From contig NZ_CP007496.1 in NCBI RefSeq assembly GCF_000803625.1, positions 600,001 through 632,000 of the forward strand: a DNA stretch of 32,000 nucleotides, in the 5' to 3' direction. Every line of letters starts with the position of its first letter. Position 1 is the first letter of the stretch. The notes beneath the pieces were generated by a model that made no database searches, had not been told where the DNA came from, and saw only the letters and a program-made list of their open reading frames with translations. The stretch is from Candidatus Nanosynbacter lyticus. Lineage in GTDB: Bacteria; Patescibacteriota; Saccharimonadia; Saccharimonadales; Saccharimonadaceae. The translations under genes were made by a program, and so were the position numbers. Of the stretch, positions 3,774 through 16,858 are shown piece by piece.

Positions 3774-5141
3774 CTATCGTCGCTCCGTAAAATAGCGCGC
3801 CGCATCTGAGGAAAACAGCATCATAATCATGATATGTACGCCGATTGAAGTTAGCAATAATACAGCTGAAGCATTAATCCTTCCGGTCGTCACCGACAAT
3901 GATTCAGTAATAATAGCAAGCATTGCCACCGCCAATAGTGAGATGCGCGCTCGATTACTACCCCGAAGCAGTAGCCCAACCAAGATAAACTCCACGATCA
4001 CCAATAGAATATTCAAGACGGCCATGATTGATAATGCCGTGTTGGCCAGATTGATGTCGATCTGCTCAATATTCGTAACCACCGCCAAGGTTTCCGTCCA
4101 GCTAGAAATATCAACCAAGGTTTGACCGACAGCAAACAGCGACGCCAATATCATCAAAACACTGCCAATCAAAATCTGCGGCGGCCGACGACTCCACAGC
4201 TCTTCCAGTAGCGTTTCGTGGTTGCGAGGACAGCGGTCATGAATTGTACCGTCCATAATAATCCCAAAACGCTTCAAGGTGGCAATAGGCTTATCAATCC
4301 TGACACGACCAACCTCCAGAATAGGCAAATCACCGTCAGTACGAATCAAATCACCGCTCCCATTACGCGAATGATAGCCTGTCGAAAAATCTTTCAAAAC
4401 TGTTACACGAATATACTTTTCGCTTTTTTTAACAGATTCGATAATGTAGTCTCTTTCAATATCAATATCTTCGTCAATTTTATGCGTCAACTGAAAGGTA
4501 AACAACGACAATCCGACACTTTTATCGTAAGAGCCAGCCGCCAACCAATCCACCCGATGACCACCCGGTAGCAGCCAACCATCTGGACAACGCCAGAATC
4601 GCACATGATGACGACGCCTTGGATTGCCATCAACTTCTTGTTGGTAAGCAAAATCTTGTCGCCGCCCAAACAAAAAAGCTGGCGAGACTGGGGCGTTAGG
4701 ATAACTACGCCCGCTTAATACGGTAAGGACCATCTTCCAAGCAGATCGCGGCGTAATGTCATCGGCCAGCACCCAGCCAGCCGCAGTCATAGCCTTATGC
4801 AACTTCTCTTCAGACCCACGCACACTCAGGTTGATAGGGTCGCTTAATATGCCGTCGGCAGTTCGGGTTCTACCAATAAAATAATTTGGCACATACATAT
4901 TGCTCAATATTCTATGTAGACGTGGCAGCGCCAGATAAGAAACAATTGCCCAAACCACAAAAAATAGACCAACCAGCCACCAGCCGCCCGTCGCCAAGCC
5001 CTCCCTAAACACCAGCCAGGCTAACCAAAACGACGCCAAGCCAGCAAAAATGAAAAACGATTGATCTAGCAGTATGGTGATGGTTTTTGATGACTGAGAG
5101 CCAATAGCTGCTATTTTCTTTGGGGTTTTTATTGAACTCAT
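3774..5141 (-). CDS. LssY C-terminal-domain membrane protein (N-terminal TM pair, LssY_C-like core, C-terminal multi-TM region)
   Basis: The core DPINLSVRGSEEKLHKAMTAAGWVLADDITPRS...NPRRRHHVRFWRC matches my recollection of the LssY_C family pattern (PxNxxxxG...aGWxxAD...RHHxRxW). Hydrophobic segments lie at both ends. Confidence 0.65.
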   Translation of the reverse strand: MSSIKTPKKIAAIGSQSSKTITILLDQSFFIFAGLASFWLAWLVFREGLATGGWWLVGLFFVVWAIVSYLALPRLHRILSNMYVPNYFIGRTRTADGILSDPINLSVRGSEEKLHKAMTAAGWVLADDITPRSAWKMVLTVLSGRSYPNAPVSPAFLFGRRQDFAYQQEVDGNPRRRHHVRFWRCPDGWLLPGGHRVDWLAAGSYDKSVGLSLFTFQLTHKIDEDIDIERDYIIESVKKSEKYIRVTVLKDFSTGYHSRNGSGDLIRTDGDLPILEVGRVRIDKPIATLKRFGIIMDGTIHDRCPRNHETLLEELWSRRPPQILIGSVLMILASLFAVGQTLVDISSWTETLAVVTNIEQIDINLANTALSIMAVLNILLVIVEFILVGLLLRGSNRARISLLAVAMLAIITESLSVTTGRINASAVLLLTSIGVHIMIMMLFSSDAARYFTERR

Positions 5142-5848
5142 ATCTTAATTATATCATTGAGAAGACCCCGGGCCGCCAAACGAGCTTCGTCGTCCTGGCG
5201 CTTAAAAATATCACCCCGTAAAATAATTTCTTCGGTCACCCGAACAGCCCTATCCAAATCGTCATTGATAATCACGTGGTAATATGGCACCTCTAGCGCA
5301 TAAGTTAGTTCACTAATCGCCGACTGGCGGCGTTTTGGCCATTCGACTTGAAAATCCTCCTCGGTGGCGTAGCGTTTTTTGAGCCGCTCAATCCAAGTTT
5401 GATAATCTGGTGGCACAATAAAAATCGCGATACTCTCTGGAGCTAATCGCTCATATTCTTCCACGCCCTGCACGTCAACGTCAGTAATTGCTACACGATT
5501 CTGATCATGTGCTAATTTTAGCTCAGCCACTGACGTGCCATAAACTGTGCCGTGTACAAACTTAGCTTCAATAAATTCATTATTTTGTAGCATTTCCTCA
5601 GCTATTTTTTGATCAATAAAATGATAGTCGACGCCGTCCTGCTCGATAGATCCATTATTAACCCGCGGCGGACGCGTGGTGTGCGAAACGATGTCGCGAA
5701 ATTCCGGCAGCTTTAATAATCGTTTTTTTATCGTATCCTTACCAGCGCCAGAAATTCCCGCCAGCAGCGCAATCTTTGTGTCCCGCACTAACTGGATAGT
5801 TGATTCGGCTGGCTGATAATTGGTGATTAAACTTTCAATCTCAGACAT
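5138..5848 (-). CDS. gmk: Guanylate kinase-like protein
   Basis: P-loop GISGAGKDT and the guanylate-kinase signature SHTTRPPR...DGVDYHFI are present. A 4-nt ATGA overlap links it to the downstream LssY-like gene. Confidence 0.8.
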   Translation of the reverse strand: MSEIESLITNYQPAESTIQLVRDTKIALLAGISGAGKDTIKKRLLKLPEFRDIVSHTTRPPRVNNGSIEQDGVDYHFIDQKIAEEMLQNNEFIEAKFVHGTVYGTSVAELKLAHDQNRVAITDVDVQGVEEYERLAPESIAIFIVPPDYQTWIERLKKRYATEEDFQVEWPKRRQSAISELTYALEVPYYHVIINDDLDRAVRVTEEIILRGDIFKRQDDEARLAARGLLNDIIKI

Positions 5849-5930
5849 AATATTTATTTATGATAACTCATCCAACACCAATTGCCAATCAGGAAATTAA
5901 CCACCCACCAAATCAATTTCTATATAGGAA

Positions 5931-6893
5931 CTAATCCCTCTTCAACATCACCGTAAACGCTTCACTCGGAATGTCAACCTTGCCGAAGCGTTTCATGCGC
6001 TTTTTGCCGCGAGCCTGCTTGGCGAGGAGCTTCTTTTTGCGGCTGACGTCGCCGCCGTACAGATAGCCAGTAACGTCCTTACGGTAAGCACCAATGTTTT
6101 CACGGGCAATGAATCTGCCACCAATTGCCGCCTGCAACGCCACTTCAAAACTCTGACGCGGTACCACTTCTTTGAGTTTTTTGACAATCTCGCGGCCCAA
6201 GCCTGGCGCCTCCGAGCGATGGCACATCACGCTCAGCGCATCAACCATCTCGCCCGCCACATAAAAATCCACCCGCACCAAATCTTCCGGCTGATAGCCC
6301 GCCAGCTCATAATTAAATGAACCATAACCGCTGGTCACCGACTTCAATTGATCATAAAAATCCGTCAGCAAATTGGCCAGCGGTGCCGTAAAGGAAATCA
6401 GCGCCCGCTCATCGATGTAACTGAGATTTTTCTGCCGACCACGCTTGGCGACAATCAGCTGAATCACCGCACCGATATAGTCCTGCGGCACCACAATTTC
6501 GCCGTCAATCCACGGCTCGCGGACCTCAGTAATTTGTGCTGGGTCAGGTAACTCGCTGGCTGATTTAATATCCAGCTCCTCACCGTTCGTCAAACTAACT
6601 TGATAATCAGTACTCGGATTGGTGACAATGAGATCCAAATTATATTCGCGCTCCAGCCGCTCACGAATGATGTCCATATGAAGTAGCCCAAGAAAACCGA
6701 TCCGCACGCCGTAGCCCAGCACTGGCGAATTTTCCGGCTCAAACTGCAGCGCCGAATCGCTCAGGCTCAACTTTTCAATCGCCTCTTTAAGGTCATTATA
6801 ATCTTCGTTAGACACCGGGAAAAAGCCCGCATAGACAAAGGGCTTGACTTCTTTGTAGCCAGGGAGGGGCTGGATGACGATATTTTCAGTCAT
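5931..6893 (-). CDS. lepA: Elongation factor 4 (LepA), C-terminal fragment (domains III, V and the LepA-specific C-terminal domain) as a separate ORF
   Basis: MTENIVIQPLPGYKEVKPFVYAGFFPVS...GFLGLLHMDIIRERLEREYNLDL...YGGDVSRKKKLLAKQARGKKRMK is collinear with E. coli LepA from about residue 285 to the end. It has its own ATG 6893, with TATAAT (6910-6905) 11 nt upstream. Confidence 0.9.
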   Translation of the reverse strand: MTENIVIQPLPGYKEVKPFVYAGFFPVSNEDYNDLKEAIEKLSLSDSALQFEPENSPVLGYGVRIGFLGLLHMDIIRERLEREYNLDLIVTNPSTDYQVSLTNGEELDIKSASELPDPAQITEVREPWIDGEIVVPQDYIGAVIQLIVAKRGRQKNLSYIDERALISFTAPLANLLTDFYDQLKSVTSGYGSFNYELAGYQPEDLVRVDFYVAGEMVDALSVMCHRSEAPGLGREIVKKLKEVVPRQSFEVALQAAIGGRFIARENIGAYRKDVTGYLYGGDVSRKKKLLAKQARGKKRMKRFGKVDIPSEAFTVMLKRD

Positions 6894-7005
6894 AACTATG
6901 TGTTATTATATCAGCTCAGCGTTTTTATATAAACGCACAGTAAATCGCTTCTTGCACGCCTACTTATTCTCGGTAAATTATTCCTTGCGCATACTGCGGA
7001 CTAAT

Positions 7006-7476
7006 TTATAAATTCTCAAAAATCTTATGAGCTTGATTCTTGCCAATAGTCTGAATCAATTCAGCGTAGCCCATCCACCGACCACGTTTTGTCTTGTCAC
7101 GACGACAATCCTTCTCGTCAGTGATATCGCCCTTAACTATCGCATCAACATTACGCCAAGCAGTCCAAGGCATGTTATCGCTCAAAAAGCTATAATCTAA
7201 ATGAACATGATTTTCGTTGACTAGCTTATAATCTGACGATGAAAATCCGCGTGCATACAACTCGCGGAGAATAACGTCTGCCAGCTCGACAAAATTGTCA
7301 GCCGTAACGTATAAAAAGTCATCATATTCCTCACCGAGTTCGTATGATCGTCCATTTATAAAAGCACAATACAAATCATCATCGACAACTTTTTCATCCA
7401 GCCACACGCGGCGGTCGCGTGTTATCGGAATTACGCGGCATCTAATTTTCTCTGTAAAGTTTTTGAAGTTACTCAT
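7006..7476 (-). CDS. Hypothetical protein (156 aa) inside the lepA insertion
   Basis: The ORF is intact but I recognise no motif and see no convincing Shine-Dalgarno. The start could be ATG 7476 or TTG 7500. The sequence is AT-rich compared with flanking lepA. Confidence 0.5.
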   Translation of the reverse strand: MSNFKNFTEKIRCRVIPITRDRRVWLDEKVVDDDLYCAFINGRSYELGEEYDDFLYVTADNFVELADVILRELYARGFSSSDYKLVNENHVHLDYSFLSDNMPWTAWRNVDAIVKGDITDEKDCRRDKTKRGRWMGYAELIQTIGKNQAHKIFENL

Positions 7477-7551
7477 AATTGCTAACAACAGATATATCAA
7501 TACCTATTTCGTGCATTTTATTACATCTGTACCTTTCAATAATAGTATATA

Positions 7552-7866
7552 TTATTTCCACTGCCGCGTCTGGTTGATCTTGTGCTTCTCAAAATATACT
7601 TCCGCCAAATTGACGTCAAACCGATTTGCCAATTCCATCAAATAATTCAACACGTCCGCAAACTCCTCGCGCAGATTATCGTGATTGTCAGGCTTTTTCT
7701 TGCCCTTAAATCTCGTCTCTTTGCGAATTGCTTTCGCCAACTCGCCAACTTCCTCGGTAAACAATAAGAATACTTCGGTAACAGAATTTTTATACCATCC
7801 TTTTTATTTACACGTTTGATCGAGGTGTTTTTGTAATTCAGTTAAGCTGATTATTTGCGAGCTCGT
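7552..7866 (-). pseudogene. MazG-like nucleotide pyrophosphohydrolase, apparently decayed
   Basis: The single reading frame gives ...ISLTELQKHLDQTCK*KGWYKNSVTEVFLLFTEEVGELAKAIRK...EEFADVLNYLMELA, the MazG EExGE...E/D-xx-D pattern, interrupted by an in-frame TAA at 7806-7804. An AAGGAG Shine-Dalgarno (7878-7873) is followed at the ideal 6-nt spacing by ACG (7866-7864) rather than ATG. Only a 70-aa TTG-initiated remnant (7764-7552) stays open. Confidence 0.6.
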
Positions 7867-7888
7867 AGCTTTCTCCTTATTGCTAATT

Positions 7889-8818
7889 TTACTCAAAATA
7901 TTTCTTCAGCGTCACCGTATCACCCACCCGGGCTTCACGGGTAGTCTTCAAGTTGGTGACGATGTAGCCAATTTCGCCAGTATCGAGCGATAGGTCGGGA
8001 ATCATGCCGGGGCTGAGATGGCCAACTTCCAATGCTAAGCCATTTGCACCAGTCGCCATCATGTGGATTGATTCACCTTTTTTGATCTGCCCGTCAACCA
8101 CCCTGACATACAAAATCACCCCGCGGTAATCATCATAATAACTGTCGAAAATCAGTGCCCGGGTCGGATCATCTGGCTGACCAATTGGTGCCGGGATTCG
8201 CTCAACAATCGCCTCTAAAACCTGATCAATATTCTGCCCAGTTTTGGCAGAAATATGAATAATTTCGCTTTCATCGCAGCCCAGCAAATTGATCACCTGC
8301 TTGGATACTCGCGGCACATCGGCAGCTGGCAAATCAACTTTATTGAGCACCGGGATAATCGTCAAATCCTGCTCCATCGCCAAGTAAACATTCGCCAACG
8401 TCTGAGCCTGAATGCCCTGACTGGCATCAACCACCAACACCGCCCCCTCACAGGCCTGCAATGAGCGGCTAACTTCATAACTAAAATCAACGTGGCCAGG
8501 CGTATCGATAAGGTTGAGATCGTAATCTCCAGCTGGCGGTAATCCTTCCAATGAATCGATAGCCCTGTCGCTGGCGTTGTCTGCGACATTCGATTGAGAG
8601 GAAGCGGTTGCCGCTGGCTGACGGTAATGATATTTCATCCGCACCGGCGCCAATTTAATAGTAATACCTTTCTCACGCTCGAGATCCATCGAATCCAGCA
8701 GCTGCGATTTCATCTCGCGCTTCTCCACCGTCCCCGTCATCTCCATCATCCGGTCAGCCAGCGTCGATTTGCCGTGATCAATGTGAGCGATAATGCAAAA
8801 ATTACGAATATTCTCCAT
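7889..8818 (-). CDS. lepA: Elongation factor 4 (LepA), N-terminal fragment (GTPase domain plus domain II) as a separate ORF
   Basis: [39 protein letters not shown] and NKVDLP form the translational GTPase motifs G1-G4. Homology ends at ...ARVGDTVT, followed by six unrelated codons (LKKYFE) and TAA. Confidence 0.92.
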
Positions 8819-10470
8819 TAGCGCATAGACTCCAATCTTCCAAATAGCATCTTTCTTAAGCGCGTCAAAACCGGATCAATTTCTGACAATTTTAGCCACT
8901 TTGACGCGGCGGCGTACACACCAAAGCTAACCATTGAAATAACAACAAACTTCGGAAAAGCACTAAAGAAACTATCATCGTGATAACGAAACGGTAGAAC
9001 CAGCACGCCGACATAACAAACTACGCCGGTAATAATTCCAGCGATTACCATCCTAAAAATTGCCTGCATAAATATCAGATCAAACATCTTTGGCATTTGA
9101 CGATTCATCACAACCAATAAAATCACCACCTCTAAAACTGCTACTGTTGATTGCGCCCAAGCCAAACCATACGCACCCATTTTCAAAACCATAGATAGAA
9201 CAATTGCTAAAATAATGTTCAGAGAAATAGAGAAAATTGAAATATAAAGCGGAGTTTTCGTATCTTGGCGAGCGTAAAATGCTCGCGCGGCCATATGGTA
9301 AATAGTTCGGAATAAAATCGCCACCACTAAGCAGCCTAAAATTCCCGCAATCAATTGGTTACCGCCGTTACGAATAAAATGGACAACGTAACCGCGTGTA
9401 AAGAAAATCACCACTGCCACCGGTAAGGCCATCCAAAAAATAATCCTCAGCAGAGAGCGTAAGTCCTTTTGAAACAGATCATCACGGCCCTCGCCTAAAT
9501 GCTCAGTAAGTTTAGGGAAGGCGGCATTAGAAATTGCCACGCCGATGAGATTAATTGGCATCAAATGTAGGGTTAACGCCTGTTGATACGCCCGAACCGT
9601 ACCGTCCGCCAAACGAGATGCCAAGTTAACTTCGACCAAACTCACCACATAATCCATGCCCTGATCAACCGACCTAGCCGGTAGCAACGATAGGACTTTC
9701 CTAAATCCTCTATTGCGCCAATAGATCTTAAAATTATAGTCAAAGCCCAAACCTGCTAGCCCAACCGCACTCACAATCAGCTGTAGGAATGACCCCAACA
9801 CCACACCAAGCGCCACACCCATAATTCCACCATCAAATATCTGCCAACCGAATAAATTGATACCATTAGTGAACCATACCGTACCAATGATAATTCCGAC
9901 ATTATAAATCATTGGCGCTAGGGCACAGAACATAAATCGCCCAACCGCTTGCTGGATACTGGCAATCACCGAGGCAATAGCAAAAATAAACGGATTCACC
10001 GCAATCACCCGCATCATGCTCACCGCCAAAGCGTGGCCCGACTCACTCAGACCTGGCGCAATTAGATATTTCATCAATGGATCAGCAAAAATAATAATCA
10101 ACACCGACGCGACCATCGTTACTAGCGCCATAAAATTGATCATACTAGAGCTAATCTGCCACGCCGACTGCTTATTTCCCTTAACCCAGCGCTCATTAAA
10201 AACTGGGATAAAAGTCACGCTGAGGGCGCCAGACACCAACACAGCGAACATAAAATCTGGCACCATAAACGCCGCCGTGTAGGCGTCTAATCCGACAGGA
10301 TAGCCAGCCAGCGCGCCGTTTTCGCTTGGCATATAGGCAGAGTTAAGCAATCGATCGCGGAAGAATCCCAGCAAGCTCGACAACAACGTCGAGCCAGCCA
10401 AAATGGTTGCAGCTAACTTGACTGTCAGCCGCTGATTAATTTTATCGACAGTTCTCCGGACGCGCCCCAT
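8818..10470 (-). CDS. murJ: Lipid II flippase MurJ (MviN family)
   Basis: The 550-aa polytopic protein has the N-terminal MurJ pattern [18 protein letters not shown]. Its TAA overlaps the lepA ATG (TAATG at 8816-8820). Confidence 0.85.
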
Positions 10471-13290: not shown

Positions 13291-13367
13291 GGCACCGTAG
13301 CTCAGCTGGTTAGAGCGCAGGACTCATAAGCCTGAGGTCGGTGGTTCGGGTCCACCCGGTGCTACCA
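13291..13367 (+). tRNA. Elongator-type tRNA with CAU anticodon (Met or lysidine-modified Ile2; cannot be distinguished by eye)
   Basis: Folds as a cloverleaf: acceptor GGCACCG/CGGTGCT (G1-U72 wobble), D arm GCTC/GAGC (Y11:R24), anticodon loop CTCATAA, T arm GGTGG-TTCGGGT-CCACC, encoded CCA. There is an A31/G39 mismatch at the base of the anticodon stem. Confidence 0.9.
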
Positions 13368-16149: not shown

Positions 16150-16225
16150 GGGGGCGTAGCTCAGGGGTTAGAGCAGTCGGCTCATAACCGATTGGTCGCT
16201 GGTTCGATCCCAGCCGCCCCCACCA
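16150..16225 (+). tRNA. Elongator-type tRNA with CAU anticodon (Met or Ile2)
   Basis: Acceptor GGGGGCG/CGCCCCC is fully paired; D arm GCTC/GAGC; anticodon arm GTCGG-CTCATAA-CCGAT; T arm GCTGG-TTCGATC-CCAGC; A73 and encoded CCA. TATAAT at 16135-16140 lies just upstream. Confidence 0.9.
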
Positions 16226-16781: not shown

Positions 16782-16858
16782 CGCGGGGTAGAGCAGCCTG
16801 GTAGCTCGTTTGGCTCATAACCAAAAGGTCGTAGGTTCAAATCCTACCCCCGCCACCA
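16782..16858 (+). tRNA. Initiator tRNA-fMet (CAU)
   Basis: The sequence is near-identical in layout to E. coli tRNA-fMet (CGCGGGG-TA-GAGCAGCCTGGTAGCTC...TTCAAAT...). Positions 1 and 72 are unpaired (C1xC72), A11:U24 is present, and the anticodon loop is CTCATAA with encoded CCA. Confidence 0.88.

Follow-up and report, generated by a model that had tools for sequence, protein, structure and literature searches.

Conserved fission of lepA at the domain II/III linker of EF4 in Saccharibacteria, with a variable accessory-gene island between the two halves

Gene fission and flexible genomic islands are both known kinds of genome arrangement. In Nanoarchaeum equitans and other reduced genomes, split genes such as those for reverse gyrase and alanyl-tRNA synthetase are cut at domain boundaries, and their products reassemble. 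The SXT element integrates into the 5' end of prfC and supplies a new promoter and start. Here we describe a split lepA, the gene for the translational GTPase EF4 (LepA), in a 32,000-nt stretch of the genome of Candidatus Nanosynbacter lyticus (NZ_CP007496.1, positions 600,001 to 632,000; hereafter the window), a member of the Nanosynbacter group of the mouth-dwelling Saccharibacteria (TM7). The gene is present as two open reading frames (ORFs), an N-half (EF4-N) and a C-half (EF4-C), separated by a gap that holds accessory genes. A phage precedent is Aeh1, in which nrdA is split into nrdA-a and nrdA-b by the homing endonuclease gene mobE and activity depends on the tails that arose at the cut (Crona et al. 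2011, PMC3045599).

As in Aeh1 nrdA, the gene of a single-chain enzyme has been cut by inserted DNA, both pieces are kept and carry short new tails, and neither RNA splicing nor protein splicing takes part. The phage gene was split by one mobile gene, whereas the lepA gap has no endonuclease gene, carries variable cargo and occurs in a cellular host and in many species. Like N. equitans, this is an ultra-small, host-dependent organism with a universal gene cut at a domain boundary, but the archaeal halves are scattered over the genome and those of lepA remain in order at the ancestral locus, with an island between them. The likeness to SXT in prfC is that inserted DNA provides the downstream part of a translational-GTPase gene with a promoter and start codon; unlike prfC, which is restored to full length by an element with an integrase, lepA stays in two pieces and no integrase is seen. 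Finally, the gap resembles flexible islands and defence islands in its fixed site, its mosaic, strain-variable content and the recombination footprints at its borders, but it is flanked by the halves of a single universal gene, and no tRNA or integrase is involved. We know of no report of a split EF4, and searches of the literature on Saccharibacteria and the candidate phyla radiation turned up neither a split lepA/EF4 nor an island at this site. What appears to be new is the combination of a clade-conserved two-piece translational GTPase, an accessory and defence island in the cut, and a second cut site in a sister clade.

The two intact ORFs that the original prediction had read from the letters of the window were recovered at the same positions and lengths (Table 1). 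The N-half matches Pfam GTP_EFTU (3e-55) and GTP_EFTU_D2 (7e-9), and the C-half matches EFG_C (5e-21), LepA_C (9.5e-43) and, weakly, EFG_III (3.6e-4). In the alignment to TIGR01393, the NCBIfam lepA equivalog, the N-half spans profile positions 1-277 (4e-125) and the C-half spans positions 278-594 (3e-130). These stretches are exactly complementary; thus, the C-half resumes exactly where the N-half stops, as had been predicted. The best PDB matches of the halves are EF4 structures. N-half residue 305 aligns with residue 277 of E. coli EF4 and C-half residue 6 with residue 281, and by this alignment the cut site is the linker between domains II and III, in agreement with the predicted break at a structural domain boundary. 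The domains that define EF4 (II, III, V and the LepA C-terminal domain, without domain IV) are all present across the two halves, and the G1-G5 GTPase motifs of the N-half are intact, including SAK and the catalytic His of DTPGH. In place of the single polypeptide of about 600 amino acids (aa) expected of EF4/LepA there are two polypeptides, scoring 418.3 and 435.3 bits against a curated TIGR01393 cut-off of 533.9 bits. Because each half scores below the family cut-off, pipelines label the halves as partial or hypothetical. lepA serves as a marker gene in estimates of genome completeness and in phylogenomics, and it may be counted as missing in split Saccharibacteria genomes. As a separate feature of the N-half, the G domain contains an insertion, absent from the EF4 of Aquifex and E. 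coli, of about 31 low-complexity residues (66-96; window 8533-8625); it sits immediately ahead of the strand running into the DTPGH motif. The length of this insertion varies among relatives, whose N-halves have 276/277, 309, ~318, ~352 or 355 aa.

We compared the window locus with other Saccharibacteria loci (referred to by L-numbers) in a survey of 80 species-representative lepA loci. The same cut point occurs in 25 of the 80, and the linker is uninterrupted in the remaining loci. murJ lies directly upstream of lepA or of its N-half in nearly all 80, split or unsplit. Neither half contains a stop or frameshift in any split locus, as had been stated for the window alone. Relatives of the C-half fall into more than 100 protein clusters at 86-98% identity and 304-345 aa, mostly 316-323 aa; the exception among these clusters (P0103, 90% identity) comes from an unsplit relative. 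Within the Nanosynbacter clade, the ratio of nonsynonymous to synonymous substitution rates (dN/dS) has a median of 0.059 over 51 pairs of N-halves and of 0.023 over 138 pairs of C-halves, at a dS of ~1.3-1.4. The N-half therefore evolves faster than the C-half, and the sequence conservation of both resembles that of unsplit lepA. No lineage with only one half was seen: every locus that extends far enough upstream has the two halves in order, on the same strand and at the ancestral position. In a search of 1.84 billion representative proteins for such a split outside Saccharibacteria, the short matches inspected were mostly truncated full-length genes or chimeras; the truncated genes still contain the VGDT motif. 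Aligning related lepA loci, a check proposed with the original prediction, thus showed a conserved split with variable gap content.

The six codons that follow EARVGDTVT in the N-half had been considered unrelated to lepA. In fact, the tail that they encode, ending with TAA (7891-7889), carries a motif, L-[KR]-K-Y-[FIV], that is kept in almost all split relatives despite synonymous variation within it (AAA/AAG, TAT/TAC, TTT/TTC). A broader form, L-[KRGA]-[KR]-[YF]-[FIVML], describes the split relatives in which the N-half end is visible. N-halves end in GDTVT-L-[KR]-K-Y-[FIV] followed by 0-17 variable residues, and C-halves start with M, 1-5 residues and then hydrophobic-x-hydrophobic-(Q/E)-P-LPGYK (M-T-E-N-I-V-I-Q-P-LPGYK in the window). 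Both tail and head are conserved despite differing neighbour cassettes, and beyond these coding ends no conserved DNA was found at the gap borders. Unsplit relatives read GDTVT-V-K-R-S-H-A-S-E-P-LPGY or similar. Since they carry the K/R-K/R and Q/E-P residues, these are ancestral linker residues; the hydrophobic residues at the cut ends are specific to the split forms, because unsplit linkers read differently. By analogy with the split NrdA tails of Aeh1, the short ends (K-K-Y-hydrophobic and hydrophobic-x-hydrophobic-(Q/E)-P) may help the two chains dock.

The N-half ATG overlaps the murJ stop by 1 nt (TAATG), and translation of EF4-N would be coupled to that of murJ. Upstream of the C-half, the TATAAT noted in the original prediction at 6910-6905 proved to belong to the best promoter-like site of the region. 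Its -10 hexamer ends 11 nt ahead of the ATG, which implies a very short leader. Nanosynbacter loci retain a TATAAT 8-17 nt ahead of the C-half start, whatever cassette precedes it. Split lineages outside Nanosynbacter have the C-half start directly next to, or overlapping, the stop codon of the gene before it (ATGA in L026; 8 nt in L035/L090). In Nanosynbacter, EF4-C would be transcribed from a -10 box of its own and have a very short leader, a start type that would be usual in this genome. Many genes of the window start 5-12 nt past a TATAAT without a Shine-Dalgarno (SD) sequence (for example, upstream of 5141, 18514, 20775, 26981, 28837 and 30857), and a minority have GGAGG. From the sequence, these TATAAT-proximal starts suggest that very short or absent leaders are common in the genome.

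Table 1. Positions of the lepA halves, the features between and beside them, and related features in other Saccharibacteria loci
Feature	Locus	Position	Strand	Details
lepA N-half (EF4-N)	window	7889..8818	-	GTPase domain and domain II; intact ORF, 309 aa
lepA C-half (EF4-C)	window	5931..6893	-	domains III and V and LepA C-terminal domain; intact ORF, 320 aa
Gap between the halves	window	6894..7888	-	995 bp; variable accessory-gene island; GC 0.390
N-half C-terminal tail	window	7889..7909	-	L-K-K-Y-F-E plus TAA
Promoter-like site of the C-half	window	6905..6933	-	TTTATA-17 nt-TG-n-TATAAT; 10/12 matches, best in region
murJ	window	8818..10470	-	conserved upstream neighbour marking the ancestral lepA locus; Pfam MurJ on the same gene in L081-L085
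MazG-like nucleotide pyrophosphohydrolase gene, decayed	window	7552..7896	-	Pfam MazG 2.9e-7 and dUTPase_2 5e-6 on a 70-aa piece
Family F2 gene	window	7006..7476	-	156 aa from ATG at 7476; TTG at 7500 would give 164 aa
F19 gene	L026			in the gap
F19 gene	L035/L090	4001-4396		
F19 gene	L096	3001-3390		
F19 gene	L022	2450-2839		
F19 gene	L036	4917-5309		
Second-fission ORFs	L032 and L033	5186-5737 + 5737-6963		
Second-fission ORFs	L038	5165-5716 + 5716-6942		
Second-fission ORFs	L045	61-621 + 622-1848		
Second-fission ORFs	L031	17-1189		

We consider it likely that these features reflect a conserved gene fission at the domain II/III linker that gives a two-chain EF4. In EF-G-family factors, domains I-II and III-V act as two blocks that move relative to each other. 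lepA has been split stably at the hinge that joins the GTPase block (I-II) to the block made up of domains III and V and the C-terminal domain. EF4-N and EF4-C would join non-covalently, on or off the ribosome, and so restore EF4 activity, with the conserved ends aiding docking. After the cut, the space between the halves became an ordinary intergenic slot for same-strand accessory genes. It has been filled with nucleotide-cleaning enzymes (MazG, NUDIX, Ham1), other enzymes and, in some strains, defence genes (restriction-modification, GmrSD and HEPN), and its contents would change through decay and through recombination, some of it illegitimate. The locus offers a natural experiment on EF4, a universal translation factor of debated function, and it adds a bacterial case to the split genes of ultra-small parasitic archaea. 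If the chains cooperate, it would provide a ready-made split system for communication between the GTPase block and the C-terminal block on the ribosome, and the covalent link between the I-II and III/V/C-terminal blocks would be dispensable in a translational GTPase.

Several points weigh against a two-chain EF4. A functional two-polypeptide EF4 was among the readings offered by the original prediction; the intact halves and their dN/dS of 0.02-0.06 favour it, but the cooperation of the chains, that is, their association and reassembly into a working EF4, is a step that we infer from sequence. lepA is dispensable in E. coli under standard conditions, so selection could act on something other than the classical function of EF4. 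On neighbour-joining (NJ) trees of the N-half, of the C-half and of the two combined, most bootstrap replicates require 4-6 changes of the split state, all within one subclade, and the tree of the N-half alone as few as 2. The survey covered the lepA loci and their flanking genes; at these loci the split gene occupies the ancestral murJ-lepA position.

Both halves could instead be retained with each having a separate job, one as a ribosome-binding GTPase and the other as a protein of domains III, V and the C-terminal domain, which we regard as unlikely. Purifying selection on both halves does not by itself prove cooperation, the C-half has its own promoter in Nanosynbacter, the gap between them can exceed 6 kb, and the faster evolution of the N-half accompanies a variable G-domain insertion. 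However, a division of labour does not readily account for the constant presence of both halves in their ancestral order and place, with no lineage that has dropped one of them, or for a conservation like that of the unsplit gene. In addition, the minimal forms of the locus are tightly packed, with the C-half start overlapping the previous stop.

The gap itself had been interpreted as one foreign, AT-rich insertion in one genome. The comparison shows instead a lineage-wide fission in which the gap is a flexible accessory island, with conserved flanks and variable, mosaic content drawn from the pool of accessory genes of Saccharibacteria. The gap measures 400 bp in L035, 410 bp in L026, 685-860 bp, the 995 bp of the window, 1.4-5.9 kb in other loci, 6.3 kb in L087-L089, or more than 6 kb. 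Its ORFs lie on the same strand and are tightly packed (spacing 0-35 bp, or overlapping); they represent at least 35 families whose order varies among 26 loci, and blocks of them recur in other contexts at 66-100% nucleotide identity. Pfam identifies DUF6994, DUF218, a nitroreductase, three NUDIX families, Peptidase_S51, GrpB, MazG/dUTPase_2, a SemiSWEET transporter, a short-chain dehydrogenase, Fic with a helix-turn-helix (HTH), and Ham1 among the cargo. The HMT-348-like genomes (L087-L089) carry RE_AlwI, DNA methylase, GmrSD_N and HEPN domains in the gap. The inside of a core gene is an unusual site for an accessory or defence island.

An insertion of ~1 kb that is mildly AT-rich does describe the window gap (GC content 0.390 versus 0.443 for the window), and the hand counts of the original prediction were reproduced (0.383 at 6901-6960, 0.250 at 7501-7560 and 0.550 at 6361-6420). 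As an argument for foreign origin, however, this GC content carries little weight, since 8% of stretches of the same size in the window are equally low; inserts in other species have a GC content of 0.34-0.51. The gap blocks are mosaic and are common to L010, L011, L012, L006 and L007 at 84-91% nucleotide identity. In the decayed MazG gene, an in-frame TAA at 7806-7804 stands where the intact copy has GAA (Glu), and the usual start codon reads ACG; the intact homologue has 104 aa (L011 5030-5344). This decaying cassette adjoins two perfectly preserved lepA halves. The other gap gene, of family F2, has no match in Pfam, PHROG or NCBIfam searches. It has 51 homologues, and the two with source names are from Nanosynbacter and TM7 oral taxon 346. 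Its AlphaFold2 model has a predicted local distance difference test score (pLDDT) of 73.5, and the top Foldseek matches in the PDB are all NUDIX hydrolases, at weak scores (E 9e-5, template modelling (TM) score 0.3-0.4). We regard F2 as a lineage-restricted gene, and its predicted fold as weakly NUDIX-like.

It is improbable that a site-specific mobile element repeatedly cut the lepA linker and that the tail and head are the ends of that element. The split state is scattered among unsplit lineages on the NJ trees, the tail motif is common to distant split lineages and there are phage precedents, all of which would fit such an element. One candidate gene would fit as well: in L036, the first gene past the N-half (4433-4930, 165 aa) has, by eye, a PD-(D/E)XK-like GPD...E-V-K pattern and no Pfam or PHROGs match, and it is the only nuclease-like candidate seen beside a split site. 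However, a domain scan of the window gap proteins and 20 cargo families (Pfam, PHROGs and NCBIfam) detected no HNH, GIY-YIG, LAGLIDADG or other nuclease domains. Neither the scanned cargo families nor the flanking genes include an integrase, transposase or homing endonuclease, and no integrase lies within 6-10 kb of the gap. The borders, as described above, lack conserved DNA past the tail and head. We also rejected an integron cassette array, as there is no integrase and cassettes 0-35 bp apart or overlapping leave no room for attC sites. The scatter on the trees could also result from allele replacement by homologous recombination, or from tree error where resolution is weak; Saccharibacteria are naturally competent (PMC10633639).

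The gene found alone in the smallest gaps does not resemble a mobile element either. F19 is the sole gap gene in L026 and L035, where N-half, F19 and C-half are tightly packed. It is a conserved Saccharibacteria protein of 130 aa with a tautomerase/MIF fold in its model (pLDDT 94), and it has Ala, not Pro, after the initiator Met. We considered F19 as a founder mobile gene and rejected this on account of its fold and of the place of its distant homologues (~50% identity), which are found elsewhere in other genomes, near ftsZ/ileS or tatD; because of these, F19 looks like a relocated ordinary gene. It is the first or second gene after the N-half in 4 of 6 non-Nanosynbacter split lineages, and its shared position beside the N-half argues for a shared ancestry of the split.

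Gap contents probably turn over by recombination, and several loci retain marks of it. The island of L006 (4701-4823), L009 (3970-4095) and L018 (3984-4109) contains, immediately upstream of the nitroreductase cassette, a leftover copy of C-half codons ~7-46. This copy later loses its frame and carries stops, and it is a footprint of duplicative, partly illegitimate recombination. In L011 the SemiSWEET cassette sits between the copies of a 55-bp direct repeat. In addition, a chimeric gmk::lepA-C ORF (L087 19828-20442, L089, L097 19997-20581 and L098 10308-10892) fuses the N-terminal ~94 residues of guanylate kinase with residues 211-320 of the lepA C-half. The lepA-C copy in this chimera lies ~9 kb downstream of the resident C-half and shares 82% nucleotide identity with it, and the stretch from lepA-C to gmk varies from ~60 bp to 2.8 kb across Nanosynbacter genomes. 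Third-codon-position identity is flat along the C-half within Nanosynbacter; when split lineages from different clades are compared, it rises by only ~0.05 close to the junction. Since synonymous-site identity is not raised at the junction, there is no sign of frequent sweeps across the borders.

A second fission of lepA, at the boundary between the G domain and domain II and without an insert, occurs in L031, L032, L033, L038 and L045. The first ORF has 183-186 aa and ends in ERIPSPKEI, and the second has 408 aa. Their junction is conserved (GGAGATTTAATG), with an SD-like motif and a TAA that overlaps the ATG (TAATG), and dN/dS is 0.013-0.052 in both ORFs. This independent fission under such constraint indicates that EF4 in pieces has been tolerated repeatedly in the phylum. 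The wider proposal, that EF4 is a non-covalent two-chain GTPase both here and, cut differently, in the second clade, with ends that dock and a cut that became a slot for accessory and defence genes, is evenly balanced in our judgement.

That lepA is a pseudogene, inactivated by an insertion and decaying, is very improbable. The gene is interrupted, lepA is non-essential in model bacteria, and the neighbouring MazG gene has decayed. Yet the two lepA halves remain whole across 25 species genomes and more than 100 protein clusters, and their start signals are conserved. With conservation across 25 species and a dN/dS of 0.02-0.06 at a near-saturated dS (~1.3), a drifting pseudogene is excluded, and with it the very recent inactivation that the original prediction had listed among its readings.

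The least credible explanation, to which we give almost no weight, is that the gap is removed at the RNA or protein level (as an intron, an intein or by translational bypass) or is an assembly artefact; the break is clean and the halves resume exactly, but the gap varies in size (0.4 to more than 6 kb) and is occupied by unrelated genes that have their own starts and stops, and the same arrangement recurs in a closed genome and independent contigs. At least 21 contigs encode a protein identical to the C-half, among them the closed 705,178-bp genome CP040011.1 (GCA_005697395.1). The order murJ, N-half, gap, 156/160-aa gene and C-half is identical in five independent records that reach far enough upstream (L081-L085), three of which (L081, L082 and L085) have the MazG piece called, and the window layout is also present in independent metagenome contigs from ENA and Logan; the assembly chimera that had been raised as a caveat is thus excluded. 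An intervening sequence removed from the RNA had also been suggested, with Rfam intron models as the check. Rfam gave no match in the gap of the window (5500-9300 scanned, E-value mode, E<=1) and no relevant family in 10 related loci (gathering score), and gap content is not conserved, so we rejected a group I or group II intron. An intein or split intein is excluded because the tail (5-8 residues) and head (6-9 residues) are too short, at least ~130 aa being needed; Pfam detected no Hint domain.

Within the Rfam scan of the window, a mir-2 match inside murJ (8856-8911, reverse strand) scored 27 bits against a gathering score of 45.5 and is a spurious, chance match. Elsewhere in the window, three tRNA-Met (CAT) genes lie within 3.6 kb on the forward strand (13291-13367, 16150-16225 and 16782-16858).

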